Made by a program: the position numbers and the translations under genes
The notes under the pieces: generated by a model
The model's input: only the letters and a program-made list of their open reading frames with translations
Told to the model about the DNA's origin: nothing
The model's database searches: none
DNA from: Cyanobacteria bacterium P01_D01_bin.156
Lineage (GTDB): Bacteria > Cyanobacteriota > Cyanobacteriia > Phormidesmidales > Phormidesmidaceae
DNA length: 56,420 nt
Direction: 5' to 3'
Assembly (NCBI GenBank): GCA_039024555.1
Contig: JBCCQQ010000042.1
Location: forward strand, 1-56,420
Part shown: piece after piece, positions 8,968 through 37,934 of the stretch
Numbering within the stretch: the stretch's first letter is position 1
Layout of the letters: the number at the start of each line of letters is the position of its first letter

Positions 8968-10521
8968 TTAAGCATTTCCTTGGTCTAAATCCCAGGTAAT
9001 CTCTCCTAAAAAGTTTGTCTGGGATGACAAAATAATTCTCACTTCTTCAACTGGAGTGGTATACCGGAGCAATTTCTGGGCAATGGCACGAAACATCGTA
9101 TCCAGAGCCATTCCCCTGGGAAAAGTACCCTGCTCCACACCCAATAACGGGAATGCCATAGATTGTACAGAAAGGGTTTCTGCTTGATAAAAACAGCTAT
9201 CTACAACATCTGTAATCACTTCCCGCATCATGCGCTGTTCAAATGCGTTGCCCCCATTCTGAGTGATGCCGTGAAAAACAAATCTAGATGACAGTTTTCC
9301 AGCAGCGGTGACTACCGCGCGCCCCTTGCGGGCTGGAGCAAATCGCTGAACATCTTCTCGAAACCCTTTACCAGCTTTGGTGGCGAGGGCGGCGGCAATC
9401 CCCCTGTCCAGGGTTAGCTGGGTATTATCAGAACTGACCAGCACATCCACAGTCTGTTCTGTTAAATCACCAAAGAGAATTTTGAGACGACGACAGTGGG
9501 GAAAATCAAAAAACGTAGTCTGTTTTAGATGGGTGGAGTCAGGGTTTAGAAACTGTGGACGATGGACCTGATAGATACCAATATAGCTACTCAGTGTGGG
9601 GTCAATACTACTGTTCCAGGCATCGGTGCTCGGCGTGTTGAGAATGTCGTTGATCTGCGAAAAACTGGAAAACCGTTCGGCAGGGTTTTTGGCTAAACAA
9701 CGCTCAAGGCAATCACTTAAGACGCTGCTCATGGATGGCTTGAGAATTTTAGGCGATACCAAGGGCTCGGTTTTATGTTTGCAGACCACTGACCAAGGAC
9801 TGTCGGCTTCAAACGGGGGCTGGCGGACGATGGCATGGTAAAACGTAGCCCCAAAGCTATAGATATCCGCCCGAGTATCCACATTGCTGGGATTTTCAGC
9901 CTGCTCAGGAGCCATATAGAGGGGCGTTCCCAATACTTGCCCCTCTAAGGTGAGATGATTCATGGTTTGCCCCATGGCAATCCCAAAATCCATCACCAAT
10001 GCTCGTTGACGGTTATCAATAATAATGTTGGAAGGCTTAAGGTCCCGATGGATCACCCCCTTGGCCTCCGCATCCATCATGGCGGTGCAAACATCCCGCA
10101 TCCACTGGCGAATCATCTCTTCGTTGAGATTAAAAGACCGATCTTTTAACAATGTTGAAAGATCCTTTCCCTCAATCCAATCCATCACCAGTACGCCCCG
10201 CTGTGGATTTAGCTTAAGAAAGTCATGGACCGTTACCACATGGCGAGATTGAATACCGGCCATGGCCATAGCTTCTTGGTACAGACGGGACGCTCCATCA
10301 GTCGTATGGGGTCTGCACAACTTAAGGGCAACGGAACGGTTGAGCAGTCGATCGTGCCCCCGAAACACTATACCCATGCTGCCATGGCCAACGGCTTCTA
10401 ACAGCTCATATCGAGCTGCTAACTGGTCGATTTCGTCTGAGGTCAATGGATAGGTAGTGTCTAGCTCGCCCCCCTCTAAAGGTTGTGGAACTAAAGAGTT
10501 CGGTAAAGAATAAGCGATCAA
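8968..10521 (-). CDS. Hanks-type Ser/Thr kinase fused to a C-terminal macrodomain
   Basis: GHGSMGIV, VALK, HRDLKPSN, DFG, GTPLYMAPE; C-terminal GDLTEQTVDVLVSSDN...GRAVVTAAGKL..RFVFH...SMAFP macro fold. Confidence 0.85.
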   Translation of the reverse strand: MIAYSLPNSLVPQPLEGGELDTTYPLTSDEIDQLAARYELLEAVGHGSMGIVFRGHDRLLNRSVALKLCRPHTTDGASRLYQEAMAMAGIQSRHVVTVHDFLKLNPQRGVLVMDWIEGKDLSTLLKDRSFNLNEEMIRQWMRDVCTAMMDAEAKGVIHRDLKPSNIIIDNRQRALVMDFGIAMGQTMNHLTLEGQVLGTPLYMAPEQAENPSNVDTRADIYSFGATFYHAIVRQPPFEADSPWSVVCKHKTEPLVSPKILKPSMSSVLSDCLERCLAKNPAERFSSFSQINDILNTPSTDAWNSSIDPTLSSYIGIYQVHRPQFLNPDSTHLKQTTFFDFPHCRRLKILFGDLTEQTVDVLVSSDNTQLTLDRGIAAALATKAGKGFREDVQRFAPARKGRAVVTAAGKLSSRFVFHGITQNGGNAFEQRMMREVITDVVDSCFYQAETLSVQSMAFPLLGVEQGTFPRGMALDTMFRAIAQKLLRYTTPVEEVRIILSSQTNFLGEITWDLDQGNA

Positions 10522-20737: not shown

Positions 20738-22192
20738 ATGTTATTTAGAGTCACCCTCCCCATGGCCATTCCTCGGCTTCAGTCATCTCTACGTCGGGAG
20801 ATACGCGAGTTCTTTAAATTGGCAATTCCTCTGGCCAGTGCCCAGGTGGCTCAGTCCGCTACAGGGTTTGCAGACACCATTATGATGGGCCGCATGGGGC
20901 CAGACGTGCTGGCAGCAGGCGGTCTGGCAGCGATTATTTACATTGTGATCATGACTGCGTTTACAGGTGCTGTTATGGGGGTTAGTCCTTTAGTGGCCGA
21001 AGCATTTGGCGCAGGCAAAAAAGGACGCGTGCAGCAAATAGCCAGTCAGGGACTGTGGCTAGCTATGCTGGTAGCCGTTCCCGCCATGATATTTACAGGG
21101 CAGTTAGAAGGTTTGATGCTGCGGTTGGGTCAAGACCCGGTGGTAGTTGAGCTCACAGACACCTATTTACAAGTTATTCTGTGGAGCTTTTGGCCCATAG
21201 CCGGATTTACAGCCCTGCGGTCTATGGTATCGGCCCTTTCCCAGGCCCGCCCCATCATGGTCATTATTGTAGTGGGAACGATTTTTAATATTGTTGGTAA
21301 CTACCTCTTGGGCTTTGGTAAGTTGGGACTGCCTAACCTGGGGTTGGCCGGTTTAGCCTGGGCCACCATGCTGACCTGGTGGGGAATGTTTACAGCTTTA
21401 GCACTGTATGTACTACGCCACCCCACACTGCGTAATTATCGAATTTTTCAGTCTCTCCGTTGCCCTAAGTGGCGTATTCTCAAGCAGCTGATTTGGGTGG
21501 GGGTACCCATTGGTATTTTCTCAGGGTTGGAGTCAGGATTTTTTCTGTCGGTTATGTTGATGATGGGGCGTTTGGGAACAGATGCCCTAGCAGCTCACCA
21601 GGTTGTTTTGCAAACTATTGTGGTGGTGTTTATGGTGCCCCTGGGAATTTCCTTTGCTACTACGGTCAGGGTAGGCCAATGGTTTGGCCGTCAGGATGTG
21701 GCGGGAATGCAGCGGGCCACTGGGGTGAGTATGGCAATTACGACGGTGACAATGCTCATGGGTTCTCTGGCTTTTTTGTTATTTCCAAAACAGCTGATTG
21801 GTATTTATTTGGATGTGAATAGTCCAGAGAATAAGGCAATTGTTGAGTTGGCGATGCCATTGTTGACCATTGCGTCGGTCACGATGGTGTTAGACGGGTT
21901 GCAAAAGGCGGTGTATGGCGCACTGCAGGGAGTGCAGGATACTCGGGTGCCTATGGTGCTGAATGCAGTTGGTTTTTGGGGTGTGGGTCTGTCGGCTGGA
22001 TATGGTTTGGGGTTTTATTTGGGGCTGGGCAGCCAGGGATTGTGGATTGGGCAGTCAATAGCCATTGCTACCGTAGCGACTCTATTTAGCATAAGGTTAT
22101 ATCGAGTTCTGAATAGGCTAAAAAATGATTCGATATTTGTACCTATTCATCCAGAGACAAGCAATCCAACGACTCAACCGTTAATCAGCTAG
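20738..22192 (+). CDS. MATE-family efflux transporter
   Basis: FFKLAIPLA..Q...GFADTIMMGR, VRVGQWFG, GALQGVQDT; about 12 TM; alternative start 20762. Confidence 0.93.
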   Translation: MLFRVTLPMAIPRLQSSLRREIREFFKLAIPLASAQVAQSATGFADTIMMGRMGPDVLAAGGLAAIIYIVIMTAFTGAVMGVSPLVAEAFGAGKKGRVQQIASQGLWLAMLVAVPAMIFTGQLEGLMLRLGQDPVVVELTDTYLQVILWSFWPIAGFTALRSMVSALSQARPIMVIIVVGTIFNIVGNYLLGFGKLGLPNLGLAGLAWATMLTWWGMFTALALYVLRHPTLRNYRIFQSLRCPKWRILKQLIWVGVPIGIFSGLESGFFLSVMLMMGRLGTDALAAHQVVLQTIVVVFMVPLGISFATTVRVGQWFGRQDVAGMQRATGVSMAITTVTMLMGSLAFLLFPKQLIGIYLDVNSPENKAIVELAMPLLTIASVTMVLDGLQKAVYGALQGVQDTRVPMVLNAVGFWGVGLSAGYGLGFYLGLGSQGLWIGQSIAIATVATLFSIRLYRVLNRLKNDSIFVPIHPETSNPTTQPLIS

Positions 22193-22456
22193 TCAATATA
22201 CTCAAAATCCTTGTTCATGGGCATTTCACCCCAACTCAGATACAGAGCAAAGTTCATAGGGGTTGTGGCAGGGATGGGGACAATGCCCGTGCTATTTGGC
22301 GTTGATGTTATTGAAGGAATTAATTTAAGGCTAAATAAACCTTACTGCCAGAGCCTATAGAAAGCATTTACATTTAGCCATATTGTTAAGGGTTAAATTT
22401 TGCTGATTCTATGAAATCTGTTGAGTAGTACTAGGGTGTAGCGCGAACGCTCATCC

Positions 22457-23803
22457 ATGGATCTTGAAAGTGCATTCCGAAACTTACCCCAAGATGCTGA
22501 TGAAGCAATGGTTCAGCATCTTTTCTCGCAGCCTTTCCTTCAGTCATTAGGCTTTGAGCAACTCGAAATGCATTCTGAGTACCCTATTGGGCGTAAAGCC
22601 GTTGATTGGGCCGCTCGTAAAAATCCAGATCCAAACAATGTCTTTTTTCATACAAAGCAATCCCCTTACCTCTACATGGAGGTTAAAGGGAGGACTGAAA
22701 ATTTAACCGAAGGGCACACACACTATTTGAAGCATGTTGCTCAGCTGAAGCAATACTTACTGGCTCCACAATCAAAAACAGTCCAGTGGGGAATTTTAAT
22801 GAATTCTCTGAAAGCTCAGTTATTTCGTAAGCATGGGAAAGTTATCCATCCTGCTTTACCGTGCATGTCTTTTGACGATGGAAATCTTCAGCAAACAATT
22901 AGTAGTATCAAGACTCGAATAGAACACCCTAAGCGTGGGTTAGTGGTCACTGTTTACAACAACAAAGGTGGTGTTGGAAAAACTACCACTGTCGCTAATC
23001 TTGCAGCAGTACTATCTCAGCTTAAAAAGCGAGTATTGATTGTTGACCTTGACTCTAATCAAGGAGATCTAGGGGATGCCTTAGGAGTGCAAAAGACCTC
23101 TGGGGATATGAAGGCATTACTTTTAGGCTCAGTTAAAGATATTCGAGCAATAACGAGCCAGTATAATCCCAAACACCCTAAGCTCAAGGGCTATAGGTTT
23201 GATATCGTCGCGGCGGATAGAGAGCTATCCAGCACAAATATAAACGCCATGGCTCAAATAAAGCAACGAGCCAAACCGCATACTCTTTTAATGTCATTGG
23301 AAGCAGCACGACAAGAGTATGACTACATTTTTATAGATGCCCCTCCTGGCTGGTTAGAGTATTCTAGGCAAGCTGTTTGTGCTGCGGATGTTGTACTTAT
23401 TCCAGCCCGACACGATAACTTGCACTCCCTACAAAATGCAGGGATGACAATCGCTCGATTCATTCCTGATGCTCAGAAAGCTTTAAGAGAGCGTGGCTAC
23501 CCAGGGCCTGTAGCTTTACCTATATTCCTAAATAACGCTCACTCCATCACTGACGCCCAAGTCAACGTGATGCATAAGGCTATAGCGAGAATTATCACCT
23601 CTAATAGGCAGCATGGTATTAACCTTACCCCGTACTTCTATTCCAAGAGAAAGCCCCGGCGCGACAGTCAAGACTTAGCAATGATTTCAGTGCCCTATCT
23701 GGCTTATATTTCTCAATCGGATTTTATTCAAATCCCTGGAGCTTTTTGGCATAAGACTGTCCGAGACCAGTATGTAAATCTAGTTAAGGAGTATTTTCTA
23801 TGA
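22457..23803 (+). CDS. HsdR-N-type PD-(D/E)xK nuclease domain fused to a ParA/Soj ATPase
   Basis: N-terminal E..VD...MEVK...QLKQY...WGILMN; C-terminal deviant Walker A NNKGGVGKTT, VDLDSNQ, IDAPP. Confidence 0.82.
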   Translation: MDLESAFRNLPQDADEAMVQHLFSQPFLQSLGFEQLEMHSEYPIGRKAVDWAARKNPDPNNVFFHTKQSPYLYMEVKGRTENLTEGHTHYLKHVAQLKQYLLAPQSKTVQWGILMNSLKAQLFRKHGKVIHPALPCMSFDDGNLQQTISSIKTRIEHPKRGLVVTVYNNKGGVGKTTTVANLAAVLSQLKKRVLIVDLDSNQGDLGDALGVQKTSGDMKALLLGSVKDIRAITSQYNPKHPKLKGYRFDIVAADRELSSTNINAMAQIKQRAKPHTLLMSLEAARQEYDYIFIDAPPGWLEYSRQAVCAADVVLIPARHDNLHSLQNAGMTIARFIPDAQKALRERGYPGPVALPIFLNNAHSITDAQVNVMHKAIARIITSNRQHGINLTPYFYSKRKPRRDSQDLAMISVPYLAYISQSDFIQIPGAFWHKTVRDQYVNLVKEYFL

Positions 23804-24483
23804 GCTTCTCAGAATTGGGGACGTTGATGTGTTTTCCTTTCGACTCCATTACATCATGTAAGGATACTGATGAGCATGATTATTTGATCCAATCAACGGC
23901 TGAATTGCTTGCTGAAAGAGGCCGAAACTGGCTTCCACTGATTGTGGTCGAAACTGGTCCCGATCAGTATGAGGTAATAGCTAATGAATTTGTTTATGCA
24001 GCAGCAGCAGCAGCAGATCTAGAAGAAGTTTGGTGTATTGTCGCTGACGAGTCGTCCGAGACTAAAGAGATTGCGCAAGCATTATGCCGGGAGTCTACTC
24101 CTAAAACCAACCTATCCACAGCTAGTCGAGATGAAATTAAACTGGCGTTAGATTACCTGCTCAAACAACCTAATACGCCTCTCAAGGGAGTTAATATAAG
24201 CATCGCTGTAACTCGTATAGAGGACGCCCCCAGACAATACTGGAGTAGTTTTCAACCCATTACTAAACTAGGATGCAGAATCATGGCAGGTAAGAAGTTG
24301 AAGGCATTAGAACAAGTTTTCTATTTAACTCCAGAGCCTTTGCCTGATGTGATAACTGATCGCAAGCTATTAGACTCATTCACGGTGAAGCAGCTCAAAG
24401 AGTTGGCTAAGAAGCGAGGTATGAAGGGCCTCTCAAAGCTGAAAAAAACTGATCTGGTTGATTTGTTGACTGAGGAAGAGTAA
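23800..24483 (+). CDS. ParB-like N-domain + HhH-like + Rho-N/HeH domain protein
   Basis: NWLPLIVVETGPDQYEVIAN...EEVWCIV; NLSTASRDEI; TVKQLKELAKKRGMKGLSKLKKTDLVDLL; ATGA overlap with the upstream gene. Confidence 0.75.
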   Translation: MSFSELGTLMCFPFDSITSCKDTDEHDYLIQSTAELLAERGRNWLPLIVVETGPDQYEVIANEFVYAAAAAADLEEVWCIVADESSETKEIAQALCRESTPKTNLSTASRDEIKLALDYLLKQPNTPLKGVNISIAVTRIEDAPRQYWSSFQPITKLGCRIMAGKKLKALEQVFYLTPEPLPDVITDRKLLDSFTVKQLKELAKKRGMKGLSKLKKTDLVDLLTEEE

Positions 24484-24697
24484 GACTTCTGTCTTTATTC
24501 TGACAGCTCTAATTGAGACCACCCAATTGGAGAGTGTTCAGAATTTTGTGTAAGACTGTTACTCCACCTCACTCTCCAAAAGAGCATTACCCAAGAGAAA
24601 TATCTATAACATCCACAAAAGTATCACTGAGCAAGATCTAGGACATTTCCAAATGCCCGGCGCTAGAATCAAAATAGTGACTTTTTATAAACCCGTT

Positions 24698-25135
24698 ATG
24701 AAAAACTCCTGGAAATTACTGCCCTTACTATCTGTTATTTTTGCTGTTGCTAGCCATCAGCCCCTGGCTGCAGAAGTAGCACCCACACTACCACCCACCA
24801 TTACCATCCCTAGCGCTCAATCAGAAGTCACCGTCCGCCTAGAAAACCAAACCCCAGCCGCCATTACTTATGAAGCTCTGGGAGATACCCAACCTCGCCT
24901 GCTAACCTCAGGAGATGATGTTCTTCTCCAAAACCTCAACACCCCCACTACACTCACATTCTTCTACCAAGACATTCAGAAGAATCGACAGGCGGGTGAA
25001 GGACTCCTAACGGCTGCCATAGAAGTAAACGAAGCCACCGGTAACCTAGAAGTAGTTGTTAAACCAACCACTAGCCTAGGTTCAGATGTAAGCAACATCA
25101 CCATCGAACCCAGCGGCAACGTATTTGTTTTCTAA
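24698..25135 (+). CDS. Secreted hypothetical protein (beta-rich)
   Basis: Signal peptide MKNSWKLLPLLSVIFAVAS..LAA; start moved to ATG 24698. Confidence 0.7.
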   Translation: MKNSWKLLPLLSVIFAVASHQPLAAEVAPTLPPTITIPSAQSEVTVRLENQTPAAITYEALGDTQPRLLTSGDDVLLQNLNTPTTLTFFYQDIQKNRQAGEGLLTAAIEVNEATGNLEVVVKPTTSLGSDVSNITIEPSGNVFVF

Positions 25136-27545: not shown

Positions 27546-27863
27546 CTATGCCAGTAACCAGTCCTCGGCCGCTTGAAAAGTTTTGAATGCCTTAACTTCG
27601 GTTTGGCTGCAGCGCAGATTTATGGAAGATACCAAAAACTGAATGAGTAAATCATTACGTACCAGGGCCATTACCGATACAGGGCTCTTGTTGATGGAGA
27701 CCACCAGCAAATCGGCAAAATCCTTGGCTAAGCGCCCACTGCCTTGAATTTCAATCAGCATGGCGGCCTTGGGGTCGGAAGACTGTTGTTGAGCAGTGAA
27801 CGTAGCTTGGAGATCGTCGGCCAAAGTTAGCAAACTGACTGTGTAGGTATTGTAATTAGACAT
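27546..27863 (-). CDS. Small SpoIIAA-like (STAS/SEC14) protein
   Basis: 105 aa alpha/beta; C-terminal VKAFKTFQAAEDWL resembles the F-x(4-5)-A-x2-W-L terminus of that family; 8-nt overlap with the desulfurase gene. Confidence 0.55.
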   Translation of the reverse strand: MSNYNTYTVSLLTLADDLQATFTAQQQSSDPKAAMLIEIQGSGRLAKDFADLLVVSINKSPVSVMALVRNDLLIQFLVSSINLRCSQTEVKAFKTFQAAEDWLLA

Positions 27864-28992
27864 GGAGAATTTGCCGGTAACTCTGGCTAACGCCTTGGAG
27901 AGCCTGGGTGAGCTGCTCTAAATCAGCAGCGGCGGTGGTAACTCCGGTGGATACCCGTAGGGTTCCGTTAGGAAAGGTACCCAAGGTACGGTGAGCTAAA
28001 GGAGCACAGTGTAGCCCTGAACGAAGCTGAATGTCGAAACAGCGCTCTAATATATCGGCAGCTTCTGAAGGGATAATTCCTGGCAGGGTAAAGCTAACAA
28101 TCGGCACGGCGGGCGACTTACTAGTGGTAACTATCTGACCACCACCTGCCGTCACTGCCTCACGTAAATCGTGGACTAAAACATCTGGCTTAGAAAACTT
28201 AGTTACGTTAGCAGCCTGGGCAGACATTGCTGCGATCGCAGGCAAATTAGGTGTACCTGCTTCTAGTCGCTGGGGTAGCAATTCTGGCATTGTCTCTGCT
28301 GCCGCCTCACCGCCGGTCCCACCGTAAATTAAGGGTTCTAGAGTTAGCCCATGGCTTACGGCTAAAACCCCCACACCGGGTAGAGATCGCAGTCCCTTGT
28401 GGCCCCCAAAGGCAATGGCATCAGCGGCGGCCAGTCCATGGGTATTGATCACACCTACGGTTTGGGCCGCATCAATCACCACCTTTGCCCCGGTCTGATG
28501 CGCCATAGATATTACGGTGTCTACCGGCTGCACGATGCCCGTGACATTGGAGGCATGGGTTAGCACAACCACGTCAGTGTCAGTTTGCCAGGTAGCGGCT
28601 AACTGGGAACAGTCAATCAATCCCTCGGGAGTGTTTGGCAGAATCCAATATGGAATACCCTGCTGCTGGGCCAGGGCCATTACGGGCCGATAGGCAGCAT
28701 TGTGGGCCAAAGGATCGATGGCAATGCGTCGAGGTCGAGGCCGTATACCCAGAATCGTCTGGTTAAGGGCCGCAGTCGTGCTGGGTAAAAAACAAACGGC
28801 ATGGGTTTGGGAAGAAACGCCGATGAGGGGTGCGATCGCATCCCGAGCCCGAGCAATCACCTCGCTAGCGGCCATCGCCGACTGGTGGATCCCTCGCTGG
28901 GCACTGCCCATATTCATCGCCCTGGTGGCAGCCTTGAGGGCAGCTGGTGCCCGTGGCAGCCCAGTCGCTGCATGGTCAAAGTAGTAGGTCAT
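27856..28992 (-). CDS. Cysteine desulfurase family (PLP class V aminotransferase)
   Basis: YFDHAAT, THASNVTG, DAAQ, GHKGL (PLP Lys), EAGTPN, RSGLHCAPLAH (catalytic Cys). Confidence 0.92.
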   Translation of the reverse strand: MTYYFDHAATGLPRAPAALKAATRAMNMGSAQRGIHQSAMAASEVIARARDAIAPLIGVSSQTHAVCFLPSTTAALNQTILGIRPRPRRIAIDPLAHNAAYRPVMALAQQQGIPYWILPNTPEGLIDCSQLAATWQTDTDVVVLTHASNVTGIVQPVDTVISMAHQTGAKVVIDAAQTVGVINTHGLAAADAIAFGGHKGLRSLPGVGVLAVSHGLTLEPLIYGGTGGEAAAETMPELLPQRLEAGTPNLPAIAAMSAQAANVTKFSKPDVLVHDLREAVTAGGGQIVTTSKSPAVPIVSFTLPGIIPSEAADILERCFDIQLRSGLHCAPLAHRTLGTFPNGTLRVSTGVTTAAADLEQLTQALQGVSQSYRQILHV

Positions 28993-29417
28993 GGGTTATT
29001 GGAGGTAACTGGCTCCAGTGGAACAACATCCAAAGAGACCTGCATCAGTTCTGCCACAGCGTGGAGGACAATGAGTCGAGCCTGAGACACCGCAGTCTCT
29101 CGAAGAGTAAAGCGCACTCGGGCATCATGAACAATACCGGTCAACAAAAAACGCTGAGAACAGTCAATGCGAAAAAATGGCCGTGGTAAATCCTTGAGAA
29201 TTGTACATTGAGAAACGTGGGAGAGATTTTGTAAATTTTTTAGGGCAATGGGTCTGGGCAAAACAACTTCAACAATACGGTGATCGCCAAAACAGTCACT
29301 GATCAGAGTAAGGGGTAATTCTCCTAAGCAAACTTGAGTGATCTCTCGTTGTCCAACAGTTGGGTTCGATGCGATTTCAGATTGATGTTCTACCATTGTC
29401 ATGCCAGTAATTGTCAT
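28989..29417 (-). CDS. Hypothetical protein (142 aa, 4 Cys)
   Basis: ATG 29417 lies 7 nt after the upstream stop; ATGA overlap with the desulfurase; the longer start (29537) overlaps the V4R gene. Confidence 0.7.
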   Translation of the reverse strand: MTITGMTMVEHQSEIASNPTVGQREITQVCLGELPLTLISDCFGDHRIVEVVLPRPIALKNLQNLSHVSQCTILKDLPRPFFRIDCSQRFLLTGIVHDARVRFTLRETAVSQARLIVLHAVAELMQVSLDVVPLEPVTSNNP

Positions 29418-29424
29418 GGCCGCA

Positions 29425-30075
29425 TTACCCCATGCGGGTAACCACAAACCGACATAAATCATCACCCATGGTGCGACAGCTAATTTCTTGACTGCGGAAA
29501 CTTCCAGGACTGTGGAAACACTGTTGGAAGTAGTCATCAGTGAGGCTAGGCCGTTGACGAATATTCCCCTGGTAGAGCAGATTCATAATGCCAGCACAAC
29601 CGCCCTGGACCAGATAGCAGCGGGGTCGGGTACTGGTTTCATAGTGGGCTAACCACCCCATAGATTCATAGCTGTTGGCAATAGAAATCTCTAGGCGCTC
29701 CCCTGGCACAAACTCTTCAAGCGTCCATTTGCCCCAACCTAGACTATTGACCACAGCGATAATCCCAGGCACCCAGTCATCGTCTGTTTCCACCATAGGC
29801 ATCACCACAGCCTGCCATTCTTGGGATAACATGATGCCGCCAAAAGTGTAAAAAGCGCAGAGCATTCCTGCTTCAACTAAGCTTTTCTCGGTTTTGGTAA
29901 GGGCGGCTGGTTGCTGCGCCTCTACCTGGCGTACCGCCGCAAACGAGCTGAGGTTATAAAAGTCTGCATAATGTCGAGATAGATACAGCCCAAAGGCAGG
30001 AATTAAGCCATCTTCATTGCCAATAAGGGGCAGTTGGCTACAGGCTGCTACCACTGCTTTTTCATCAATTGCCAT
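29425..30075 (-). CDS. V4R-domain protein (second)
   Basis: LGWG..., PRCYLVQG, EISCRTMGDDLCRF V4R pattern; AGGAGG at 30082-30087 before ATG 30075. Confidence 0.82.
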   Translation of the reverse strand: MAIDEKAVVAACSQLPLIGNEDGLIPAFGLYLSRHYADFYNLSSFAAVRQVEAQQPAALTKTEKSLVEAGMLCAFYTFGGIMLSQEWQAVVMPMVETDDDWVPGIIAVVNSLGWGKWTLEEFVPGERLEISIANSYESMGWLAHYETSTRPRCYLVQGGCAGIMNLLYQGNIRQRPSLTDDYFQQCFHSPGSFRSQEISCRTMGDDLCRFVVTRMG

Positions 30076-30664
30076 GGGCAACCTCCTCTACCGATAGCTG
30101 ATTTAAAGGGGAGTCATTGACCGTGACGACAAAAGTGCAGGCTGCATCACCTGTAGCTAAACAATCCACTTCTTTAACCCTCACCTGCTGCACATTTAGG
30201 TTATAGGCAACAACCATCAACGCTTGCAAATAGCCTTCTATAAACTGACACACCGGAGTCTCCCGCAGGCCATACCGAGCTAACCACCCTAAGGCATAGT
30301 GGGAACTGGTAGAGGTAACTGTGCCCCCAGCTGATGTAAGTAAGTGGGGGTCAAAACGGCCAAAGCCCAGTTGCTGAAATAGGGTTGCTCCTTTTGAGAT
30401 CCGGGTTGACGGACTATCGACCTGAGCGACAATGGCAGCTAGCTGAGGTTGAGCAGCAGCAAATGCCGAGCTTCGAAACAGTTCAGCCGCGTCAGTGGAC
30501 AGGGCATCTTCAATAGACTTATGAATGGCGCAGTTGTAGTAGTGGCAGTGAAACACCATATGGCTACCTGCCAATAGCGCCTGATTCGTTTGAGGGTCAA
30601 ATTCTACGGTGTGGGTAGCCATAGGCAATTGCGGCCAATCTCCTTCAGCGAATGTTGCGTCCAT
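30065..30664 (-). CDS. V4R-domain protein (first) with HCHYYNC motif
   Basis: MVFHCHYYNC, LGFG, PVCQFIEGYL, EVDCLATGDAACTF. Confidence 0.82.
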   Translation of the reverse strand: MDATFAEGDWPQLPMATHTVEFDPQTNQALLAGSHMVFHCHYYNCAIHKSIEDALSTDAAELFRSSAFAAAQPQLAAIVAQVDSPSTRISKGATLFQQLGFGRFDPHLLTSAGGTVTSTSSHYALGWLARYGLRETPVCQFIEGYLQALMVVAYNLNVQQVRVKEVDCLATGDAACTFVVTVNDSPLNQLSVEEVAHGN

Positions 30665-30918: not shown

Positions 30919-32436
30919 ATGACACCCTCTTCTCCGAGCACCCATGTAAACGGATCTTTCCCTAATAATCCCCTCGCTAGGATTTATCAGCAGCTACAGA
31001 CGCAGCACCAGGCGCTGGGCGAAGAATTAACGCTTACTAAGCAGGCCCTTACCCAAAGCTATGAACAGCTGCAGTCCATATACTACTGGGCAGCAACCAC
31101 TGATAGCATTAATCAGGCAACGTCTGTTGCGGCCATTTATGAAGCGGCTAGCCAGGGGTTACAACATGTATTCAATGCTGATTTAGCCAGCTTTGCCTAT
31201 TGGGATACCCATGGAAAACTACAGTGGAATAACCAGGCAACAGCTGAACTAAAATCAGTTTTTGAAGACTACGATCCTTGGGCTGCTGGCTCTAACCCCT
31301 ATGAGCCAATATGCGTTACAACCGTTGCCCAACTCAACAGCAGCACAGCGTATCCTGGCTTATTTGAGAAGAAACCTTACCTGCAGGCGGCTGGCATTGA
31401 AGCATTACTGTGGTTACCCATTGTCTCTACCAGAAAAGAGAACCAGCAAGCACTGCTAGGCTACTTGGGCATTTATTTTTATCATCCCAGTCATTTTGAT
31501 GATGCCCTTCTTGCCCTAGGGCAAACCATGACGAATTCTGTTGTACTGGCTGTGGAGAGAAAACAATCAGAAACTCAACTTCAGGCCACGCTCGAAGAAC
31601 TGCATCAGACTCAATTTCAGTTAATCCAAAATGAGAAAATGTCTAGCCTGGGGCAGTTGGTGGCCGGTATTGCCCACGAAATCAACAATCCTGTAAATTT
31701 CATCTACGGAAATTTGGCCTATCTTAAAACCAGTGCTAAAGGCCTTCTAGAACTGGTGAAACGCTATACTCAACAAGTGCCCAATGCCAGCCCTGAAATC
31801 GATACGCTAATTGAAGATCTAGACCTAGATTTTTTAGCTAGGGACTTACCCAAAACCCTCTCCTCAATGGAGACAGGAACTCACAGGATTCGAGATATTG
31901 TCAAATCTCTACGGACCTTTAGTCGTTTAGATCAGGACAATCTTAAACCAGTTGATCTCCATGAGGGGATTGAAAGCACGCTGATGATTTTGCAGCATCG
32001 GCTAAAGGCGACGGATCAGCAACCTAGGATTGAGGTCGTAAAAGACTATGGTGAGTTGCCTAAGGTAAATTGTTATTCAGGGCCGCTAAATCAAGTCTTT
32101 ATGAATATTTTAGCGAATGCTATCGACGCAATTAATGATACAGCTGTGGGGAACTCAAGAAAAATTGTTATCCGTACAGTAATTGTTAAAGACGATTGGG
32201 TAGAGATTGAAATTACCGACAGTGGTAACGGTATTCCCGACTCGGTAAAATCTAAAATTTTTGATCCATTTTTTACAACCAAACCCATTGGCAAGGGAAC
32301 GGGCATGGGCTTATCCATTAGCTATAAAATTGTTGCCGAGACTCACCAGGGGCAGCTTCTATGCTATTCCCAGCCTAAATGCGGTACAAAATTTATTATC
32401 CGTTTGCCTTTGGGATTGACAGATGAGGGAACGTAG
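30919..32436 (+). CDS. Soluble GAF-domain sensor histidine kinase
   Basis: N-terminal coiled coil, GAF-like region, [21 protein letters not shown]-box, [32 protein letters not shown]. Confidence 0.93.
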
Positions 32437-32632: not shown

Positions 32633-33820
32633 ATGTATCCCTACGTTACTAGCTATGCGAAGTCCAATAGCCTGAGCCGGTTGATGCGGGCTATGATTTT
32701 TGCAAGTGTTTTATCCCTAAGTCCGACAGGAAATTTTGCTCTAGCAACATCTGAGGGATTACCAACGGACAATAATTCAGAGACAATTCACTGGCTTGCT
32801 AACACGGACCAAGCCCATGAGGATCCAGGCTATGTTGTGGCCCAGCGACGGATTCAGGTAGCCCTAGAAACTCAGGCAACGGAATTATATTTGGGCTGGT
32901 TAGACTTACAAACAGTCCCGCCCGAAATTGGACAGCTCAAGAATCTAAAAGATCTGAATCTCGGTGGTAACTTGTTAACGAGCCTGCCACCTGAAATTGG
33001 TCAGCTGACTAATTTGGAAGCGCTAGGTCTTGTGGGCAATTATCTAACGAGTCTCCCACCTGAAATTGGTCAGCTGACAGAGCTAGAGTTTTTGATTCTT
33101 GAGAGAACCCAGCTGACGAGTCTTCCCCCTGAAATTGGTCAGCTTACGAAGCTAGAAGAGCTGGATGTCTCTGATAGTACGTTAACGAGTCTTCCGCCCG
33201 AGATTGGCCAACTGACTAGTTTAAAGATACTAAATCTCAAAAAGAATCAGCTGAGATGGCTTCCGTCTGAGATTGGCCAGCTCACGAAGCTGGAAATGAT
33301 AAATCTAACGGACAATCAGCTGGACAACATTCCCTCTGAAATTGGTCAGCTTAGGAATTTGCAGACGCTCCGTCTCACACTCAATTCTCTATTTAGCCTT
33401 CCACCTGAGATTGGTCAGCTCACTAAGCTGGAATATCTGGATATTAGTGCTAATTTGCTCACGGGTGTACCTTCCGAAATCACACAGCTTACTAGCCTAC
33501 AAACGTTGCAGTTCAGTGCCAACCCGCTGCCCAAGAGTATGCCGCTTGAAATTGGTCACCTCACGAATCTCAAAAAGCTAAATCTTAGTAATAACAAGTT
33601 CACAGATATCCCCCCTGAAATTGGCCAGCTGACTAACCTAGAATCGCTGGATCTTGGTGGCAATCAGCTAACGGGTATCCCCCCTGAAATTGGCCAGCTG
33701 ACTAACCTGGAAACGCTGGATCTCCGCGAGAATCAGCTCACAAGCGTTCCCCCTGAGATTAGCCAGCTGACTAACTTACGAACACTTCATTTGATGGGTA
33801 ACCCCATACCACCAGAGTAG
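32633..33820 (+). CDS. Leucine-rich repeat protein (13 repeats of about 23 aa), probably exported
   Basis: LxxLPPEIGQLTxLxxLxLxxN repeats with 69-bp periodicity; hydrophobic N-terminal segment. Confidence 0.92.
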   Translation: MYPYVTSYAKSNSLSRLMRAMIFASVLSLSPTGNFALATSEGLPTDNNSETIHWLANTDQAHEDPGYVVAQRRIQVALETQATELYLGWLDLQTVPPEIGQLKNLKDLNLGGNLLTSLPPEIGQLTNLEALGLVGNYLTSLPPEIGQLTELEFLILERTQLTSLPPEIGQLTKLEELDVSDSTLTSLPPEIGQLTSLKILNLKKNQLRWLPSEIGQLTKLEMINLTDNQLDNIPSEIGQLRNLQTLRLTLNSLFSLPPEIGQLTKLEYLDISANLLTGVPSEITQLTSLQTLQFSANPLPKSMPLEIGHLTNLKKLNLSNNKFTDIPPEIGQLTNLESLDLGGNQLTGIPPEIGQLTNLETLDLRENQLTSVPPEISQLTNLRTLHLMGNPIPPE

Positions 33821-37466: not shown

Positions 37467-37934
37467 CTATCGACTGGTTTTGGAGTTAGGTAACAGTTGC
37501 TTCCCCTCTAGATACTTTTGCAGCTCATGGGTACTTAAACGACATAAGTCCTTAGCTAATTCATGCACAGACACTCTAGAGGTGATCTGACTGGGTAGAG
37601 AGTCTCGCAAGTTACCTAGAATATGGGGTTCTGCCACCAAAATGAGATGATGGCCATTCCAGTTTTCCAGTATTGAGCTGACTTGTTGAGTCACTTTGTT
37701 AGCAAAGCGACGGTTGATTTCTTCGGACTGGGTCGTTTTTTCATGGCGATGGCCGTGGTGTTTACGCCCAATATTGTTTTTAGTACCCTTAATCGCCATG
37801 GGCTTATCGGCATTATTTAGACTGCTATGTTCTAGCAAGTGGGGGGTAGGCTCTGCCTCAGAGAACTCAGCAGTTGTAAAGGTGAAAAAGCGAGCATGGG
37901 CACCATCAACAACTGCAACGAGATATGAGTGCAT
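37467..37934 (-). CDS. Host-attachment (AtsE/baeRF-like) family protein
   Basis: VAVVDGAHARFF, RRFA..V, LILVAEPHILGNLR, ELAKDL. Confidence 0.82.
   Translation of the reverse strand: MHSYLVAVVDGAHARFFTFTTAEFSEAEPTPHLLEHSSLNNADKPMAIKGTKNNIGRKHHGHRHEKTTQSEEINRRFANKVTQQVSSILENWNGHHLILVAEPHILGNLRDSLPSQITSRVSVHELAKDLCRLSTHELQKYLEGKQLLPNSKTSR

Follow-up and report, generated by a model that had tools for sequence, protein, structure and literature searches.

A nuclease–ParA fusion and its arginine-less ParB partner at a variable cyanobacterial site, with kindred ParB domains in phage head-region proteins

The locus described here is a pair of overlapping genes (Table 1) in a 56,420-nucleotide stretch of cyanobacterial DNA, called the window below. 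An earlier reading, made from the letters of this stretch alone, had reported two genes joined by an ATGA overlap with no methyltransferase beside them. Both observations hold, since the two genes are present in this arrangement and are flanked in the window by genes for a MATE transporter, a 160-aa hypothetical protein and an M23 peptidase (Pfam).

Table 1. Positions of the two genes, their domains and motifs in the window, and of phage proteins with gene 2-type domains (L numbers are our handles for loci; the last row gives positions within those loci).
Feature	Position	Strand	Description
Gene 1	22457..23803	+	REase-ParA fusion (effector-ParA), 448 aa
Gene 2	23800..24483	+	Inactive ParB + HhH + Rho-N, 227 aa
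ATGA overlap	23800-23803	+	Gene 2 start / gene 1 stop
Gene 1 nuclease domain	22457..22930	+	HsdR-N-like PD-(D/E)xK, aa 1-158; PF13588 matches in relatives, BpuSI fold
Nuclease residues	D50 at 22604; E75-V-K77 at 22679-22687; Q96 at 22742; Y100 at 22754	+	
Gene 1 ATPase domain	22931..23803	+	Soj/ParA-type, aa 159-448
ATPase motifs	Walker A at 22964-22987	+	Walker A KGGVGKTT (aa 170-177); DxD 197/199; Walker B D294; N359
Gene 2 ParB/Srx domain, arginine-less	23800..24096	+	aa 1-99; RNWxP 42-46; common to phage head-region proteins
A-NEFV box of gene 2	23980-23994	+	Replaces A-GERR
Gene 2 helix-hairpin-helix	24097..24330	+	ComEA-like, aa 100-177; Z 6.4
Gene 2 HeH	24355..24483	+	Rho-N-type, aa 186-227; Z 7.0
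Variable interval	22193..24652		MATE gene to 160-aa hypothetical gene, from congener comparison
Phage proteins with one or two arginine-less ParB domains	L166:7599-8669; L167:6825-8276; L168:1-747; L169:6154-7926; L171-L174; L176		

Gene 1 had been read as a restriction-type nuclease with an intact D...EVK...QxxxY motif fused to a ParA ATPase bearing KGGVGKTT. The residues are indeed present, and a check on their conservation bore them out: in 109 full-length copies (non-identical, more than 400 aa, taken from the fetched loci) D50, E75, K77, K170, K175, T176 and D294 are invariant, and Q96 is retained in 103 and Y100 in 98. The QxxxY motif is a mark of the RecB/HsdR-like nuclease group. A Pfam scan of gene 1 itself (P0001) matched the ParA part only, with no nuclease match, and the nuclease domain alone had no sequence match in the PDB; HSDR_N_2 (PF13588) is matched by 24 of 53 aligned relatives at E≤0.01. 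The AlphaFold model (pLDDT 92.6) aligns with BpuSI, a restriction enzyme of type IIG, at Z 13.1 (rmsd 3.2, 144 residues aligned, model range 1-341) and with ParA at Z 28.1 (rmsd 2.5, 247 aligned). Through its PD-(D/E)xK core with QxxxY, gene 1 resembles both BpuSI and the N-terminal part of type I HsdR, from which the pair differs in having no methyltransferase, specificity subunit or helicase motor and a ParA switch instead. Among 55 candidates (785-2240 aa) for a longer fusion of the nuclease domain, none proved to be one, which is weak evidence. Full-length identity of the relatives runs from 43 to 79%, and a hypervariable sensor is not obvious.

The model of gene 2 (pLDDT 90.2) matches the N-terminal ParB domains of PadC (Z 10.3, rmsd 2.7, 93 aligned) and KorB (Z 9.8) over residues 2-99, the ComEA helix-hairpin-helix (HhH) at a middling score over residues 100-177, and Rho-N over residues 186-227 (rmsd 1.1, 42 aligned); Pfam PF07498 is also matched (E 3e-5). 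These matches bear out the HhH-like segment and Rho-N/HeH tail that had been proposed. The further proposal, that the GxxR motif of ParB is replaced by ANEF, stands as regards the lost arginine, which is found at the GxxR columns in none of 27 gene 2 partners. The box itself lies one residue further on, the A-GERR of canonical ParB aligning with A-NEFV, and ANEF is a variant of the studied strain (1 of 57), GNSF being the form in 29 of 57. Two polar residues, N43 and N62, are invariant in alignments A2 and A3. Beyond the ParB domain, the HhH or the Rho-N part is duplicated in variants at L110, L111, L112, L114, L115, L118 and L119 and at L032, L035 and L038, and Rho-N is absent from the divergent variants L123, L183, L185 and L186. 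Another ParB-like family, with a long linker, carries the same HhH domain terminally (P0341, P0358 and P0369). A 1:1 complex prediction for the two gene products (alignments A1 and A2) scored 0.01 against a mark of 0.32, a value that is evidence neither way.

Of 301 genomes sampled from the whole phylum, 44 (∼15%) have a match to a gene 2 profile and 257 have none. Searching this set with the nuclease domain likewise gave 44, and 38 genomes are common to both lists. Of the six found with gene 2 only, three have a divergent gene 1 ahead of it (G008, G119 and G139); the other three hold fragments (G050, G095 and G177). Within the genus, 11 of 22 genomes match gene 2, 10 of them at full length, and G303, G317, G327 and G328 carry two copies each; the pair is missing from several complete congeners. 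It also occurs in small-genome lineages, and the named relatives include many genera that we take to be filamentous. The DNA beyond the MATE gene was compared across 14 congeners. In five of them the gene for the 160-aa protein is directly adjacent (an empty site), in two it comes after short open reading frames, and in five the site is occupied by unrelated genes. In G317 the same site holds a different subfamily of the pair, 46%/48% identical (L141:2397-4432), and in G307 it holds a TIR_2 protein and a 912-aa AAA_16 ATPase (L142:2020-5505). The pair is therefore an accessory module at a variable site rather than part of a syntenic core, and the position after the MATE gene is possibly a hotspot for conflict genes.

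Where gene 2 is found, it is immediately preceded by gene 1 in all but three of 80 named loci (77), and those three start less than 90 bases from a contig end. The reverse is not always so. Two small complete genomes, G123 and G259, have an unbroken gene 1 (L178:4347-5801 and L180:4605-6011) in which D, E and K are intact and the tyrosine of QxxxY is leucine, followed by an ABC transporter gene in housekeeping-like surroundings; no gene 2 match was obtained in either at E≤0.01, a threshold that a very divergent partner elsewhere could escape. Since gene 1 persists there with no detectable gene 2, the partner may not always be needed, and the earlier suggestion that gene 2 may be an antitoxin is weakened in its strict form. 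Decayed copies of the pair are common: at L162 a stop interrupts gene 2 beside a full-length gene 1, and at L021, L027, L047 and L086, all loci selected by gene 2, a broken gene 1 stands beside an intact gene 2. The only candidates for a fusion of the two genes, P0282 and P0288, are both partial and were not accepted as real fusions.

Chromosomal neighbours of the pair are mostly metabolic. On a Pfam reading, about 10 of 109 distinct immediate neighbours are toxin-antitoxin, mobile or Uma2 genes, and none is a methyltransferase of the restriction-modification kind. At 1e-10, PADLOC matched 8 of 145 sampled neighbours (280 candidates, no control set), mostly through generic kinase, ATPase, methylase and TnpB domains. 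Neither the immediate nor the PADLOC-sampled neighbours thus amount to a defence island, and enrichment near defence genes, which had been put forward as a check, was not seen. Nor did a third conserved gene emerge from 746 clusters of 1004 neighbour open reading frames. The pair is carried by 4 of 72,556 plasmid records, two of which were read wholly or nearly so and two around the match; each of the four encodes a ParM or ParA of its own apart from the pair, close to it or in another part of the plasmid. One of these plasmids, NZ_CP091922.1, also has dynamin, YjcZ-like and patatin genes in a row (L120:7685-11986), which looks like further defence cargo. A single viral contig contains the whole pair (L165:6661-8684), between a repressor-like HTH gene and an HTH-metallopeptidase with toxin-antitoxin genes, and gene 2 matched 0 of 50,697 records in the annotated phage collection.

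The pair is indeed AT-rich beside its flanks (43.3% GC against 48.3% and 50.1%; genome 47.1%), but a GC content as low as this occurs in 12% of genome windows of its size. HIP1 (GCGATCGC) is absent, as had been noted; only 0.78 copies were expected and 42% of windows have none, so its absence is put down to chance and was rejected as evidence. Codon use of the pair is in the lowest 2-3% among long open reading frames of the genome. Scans for promoters, terminators and repeats gave nothing above chance, and no repeat array was found in 22100-24750. An 11-bp inverted repeat with a 35-base spacer lies upstream of gene 1 (22326-22382) and may be chance.

The architecture corresponds to one predicted computationally in October 2026 as the effector-ParAB system (ConB1 clade) by Li, Burroughs and Aravind (bioRxiv 10.64898/2026.10.19.760177). 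According to the available text of that preprint, ParA and ParB are operonic, the ParB is likely inactive with conserved polar residues, an effector, most often an REase, stands N-terminal to ParA, an HhH or a Rho-N HeH replaces the HTH C-terminal to ParB, and the systems are enriched in multicellular taxa such as cyanobacteria. Our cyanobacterial pair agrees in the ATGA-coupled order of ParA then ParB, in the REase N-terminal to ParA, in a ParB inactive by its residues (GERR to NEFV) with N43 and N62 kept, and in the HhH and Rho-N HeH that stand in place of an HTH. Of the signatures that the preprint gives for ConB1/PriB1, namely a Walker A valine, a preceding asparagine and a glutamine two residues after DxD, the ConB1 valine (V173, 106 of 109 gene 1 copies) and the PriB1 asparagine (N169, 100 of 109) fit; the conserved glutamine lies three residues after DxD, not two (DxD-x-N-Q, 108 of 109). 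We regard membership of the REase type of this family as almost certain. The novelty implied by the sequence-only reading is not supported, because the family had already been described, and the pair itself is one more copy of it.

The preprint proposes that ParB recognises invader DNA and recruits a coating ParA, with the effector as a force multiplier or second line. This model is presented as a proposal from sequence, structure and comparative analysis, and no experimental test was found in the available text. A second preprint (10.1101/2025.10.10.680097) does not cover the family in its available text. PADLOC and NCBIfam yielded generic ParA matches only and no named system, and no PADLOC model extended beyond the Walker A region. 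The weak matches to Mad8 of MADS and to PDC-M28B span 40-110 residues of generic ParA there, and no other component of either system is found beside the pair in the window. The available text of the MADS report (10.1101/2023.03.30.534895) is silent on Mad8 as a ParA, and the link was dropped.

What is new here is the presence of arginine-less ParB domains of the gene 2 type in phage head-region proteins that occur without gene 1; no mention of such homologues was found in the main text of 10.64898/2026.10.19.760177 or in a literature search. A profile of gene 2 residues 1-180 run against 1.84 billion representatives gave 195 matches at E≤0.001, few enough to show that the profile is specific and does not draw in canonical ParB. 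Many of the distant matches are long, lysine-rich proteins that end in the ParB-like part, often in tandem; fusions with a Mu-type portal, with an ADP-ribosyltransferase or with a GNAT domain also occur. Scans of IMG/VR found head-region proteins with the degenerate domain on nine distinct contigs, five of which resemble one related phage group, so that about five cases are independent. On six contigs compared with PHROGs the genes lie among those for terminase, portal, minor head, head protease, major head or neck proteins, and the L174 protein matches a minor head protein family at E 1.5e-27. The domain spans residues 390-483 of the L167 protein and 224-321 of the L174 protein, and L166 has it as a tandem pair. 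In five phage records, two of them at least 90% complete, the gene 2 profile matched every time and gene 1 never. Within the annotated phage collection the L167 domain had no match and the L169 domain had one weak ParB-like match (E 3e-3).

The kinship of these domains with gene 2 is close. Best local identities between the C-terminal-type and gene-2-type domains are 42-60%, profile-profile comparison of these two types gives E 8e-35 over 99 columns, and the phage domains retain the N/WxP and GN motifs with arginine in 0 of 7. Trees with three canonical ParBs as the root place the phage domains and the partner domains together in a single group (100/99). When two long rows (L179 and L187) are left out, the seven phage domains become a clade (97/92) within the partner family, beside one partner subfamily (97/94). 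A direction of transfer from host to phage was nevertheless not taken as proven: with the same two rows left out, monophyly of the partners survived an AU test (p=0.385). The trees thus show kinship but not direction. A 119-row domain tree, completed in quick mode, left 52 of its 116 forks open. From this kinship the hosts of the phages would be cyanobacterial. The DdrB-like ParB domains of phage polyvalent proteins are likewise ParB folds encoded among late virion-region genes and were proposed to be packaged and injected, but, according to the available text of Iyer et al. 2017 (PMC5512222), they retain the catalytic arginine, which the domains described here, grouping with gene 2, lack.

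The best reading of these data, which we hold with about even confidence, is that the pair is an REase-type effector-ParAB, an accessory unit of two genes that gives immunity to phages or plasmids and in which gene 2 is the DNA recruiter. It draws on the domain anatomy, the intact nuclease and ATPase residues, the lost ParB arginines, the coupling of the genes and their patchy, mobile inheritance. A role against mobile elements is probable; whether gene 2 acts as a recruiter or gate rather than as a plain antitoxin is evenly balanced. Beyond anatomy, conservation and distribution, the mechanism is drawn from the known workings of ParABS and of PD-(D/E)xK nucleases. Gene 2 would bind DNA non-specifically through HhH and Rho-N, perhaps favouring structures typical of invaders, and its dead ParB domain, no longer hydrolysing CTP, would dock the ParA part of gene 1. 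ATP-driven ParA dimers would then gather on and coat the DNA, bringing paired HsdR-N-like nuclease heads together to cut the invader, or the host chromosome if activation spreads, in which case the infected cell would die. Because no methyltransferase is linked, self-protection would have to come from gating by ATP and the partner rather than from marking of DNA. Against this reading stand the mostly metabolic neighbours, the lack of an obvious hypervariable sensor and the apparent dispensability of the partner in G123 and G259. The original proposal of partition machinery repurposed with a nuclease, probably for defence, keeps its footing in anatomy, accessory distribution and the published prediction. 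Two observations that would have refuted it, a place for the pair in the syntenic core and variable nuclease residues, were looked for and not made.

Gene 2 might instead be a brake (antitoxin) on the nuclease-ParA, displaced or depleted on infection so that the freed nuclease kills the cell; such abortive infection would still be defence. ATGA coupling, near-invariant pairing and the lack of a methyltransferase would all suit a brake, as would the four loci where gene 1 is broken and gene 2 intact, and a phage-borne partner domain is how an antitoxin mimic would be expected to look. However, the count of broken genes is biased because the loci were chosen by gene 2, the nuclease gene comes first, and an obligatory antitoxin is made less likely by G123 and G259, whose unbroken gene 1 has no gene 2 match, and by L162, where gene 1 outlasts gene 2; we consider a brake unlikely. 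It is more doubtful still that the pair is selfish or competitive cargo of plasmids or prophages, serving addiction or interference with rival partition and merely collected by hosts. Its occurrence on four plasmids and one viral contig, often near integrases and toxin-antitoxin genes, its variable sites and its frequent decay speak for such cargo, but matches are very rare among plasmid records and absent from annotated phage records, and most copies stand alone amid housekeeping genes.

A housekeeping role in the DNA maintenance of polyploid cyanobacteria, with no immunity (organising the nucleoid, repair, or the processing of DNA that enters the cell), would account for moderate conservation over many families, for the generic DNA-binding HhH and Rho-N modules and for the missing defence-island context. 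It sits poorly with the 257 genomes that have no match, the complete congeners that lack the pair, the frequent pseudogenes and the failure of any third gene to be conserved, and we judge it improbable. Least probable is a variant type Ia partition system whose nuclease domain is incidental. The order of ParA then ParB and the closest solved folds, Soj/ParA (Z 28.1) and ParB/Noc (Z ∼10 for ParB-N), recall chromosomal Soj-Spo0J and type Ia ParABS, yet gene 2 has neither GxxR nor an HTH, a repeat array is missing from the region scanned, the ParA is fused to a nuclease with invariant residues, and the pair is accessory. Moreover, the host plasmids have other partition genes and the genome has a separate GERR-bearing ParB.

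That phages carry the gene 2 domain suggests that it is a point of host-phage conflict. Phages may have captured the dead ParB domain and placed one copy or a tandem of it, in most cases lacking the HhH tail, on minor head proteins of the polyvalent type. Entering the cell along with the phage DNA, these proteins would act at once as decoys or antitoxin mimics tying up the nuclease-ParA. We put this forward tentatively, as a doubtful possibility, because the phage domain may just as well be a small binding domain reused for an unrelated purpose. If it were correct, the effector-ParAB family would gain a matching counter-defence delivered by virions and, for the first time, outside evidence of phages as its target, and an interface of partition proteins contested by host and virus would be shown. 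A packaged ParB copy would serve as counter-defence whether gene 2 recruits (as a decoy) or restrains (as a spare brake). The look-alikes, which are the observation added here to the predicted family, offer candidates both for the phages targeted and for a counter-defence, together with a means of telling a recruiter from a brake. The module itself is compact at two genes, common in cyanobacteria and easy to assay.

Several genes elsewhere in the window deserve record. On the reverse strand, 8971-10521 encodes a Macro domain fused to a Ser/Thr protein kinase. What looks like an operon occupies 27549-30664 on the same strand and encodes a pair of V4R proteins, a class-V aminotransferase, a hypothetical protein and a small protein; the histidine kinase-like gene at 30919 points away from it. 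Downstream of this V4R and histidine kinase-like region lies a leucine-rich-repeat protein (32633-33820), and the reverse strand at 37470-37934 encodes a protein resembling a release factor (Host_attach / baeRF12).
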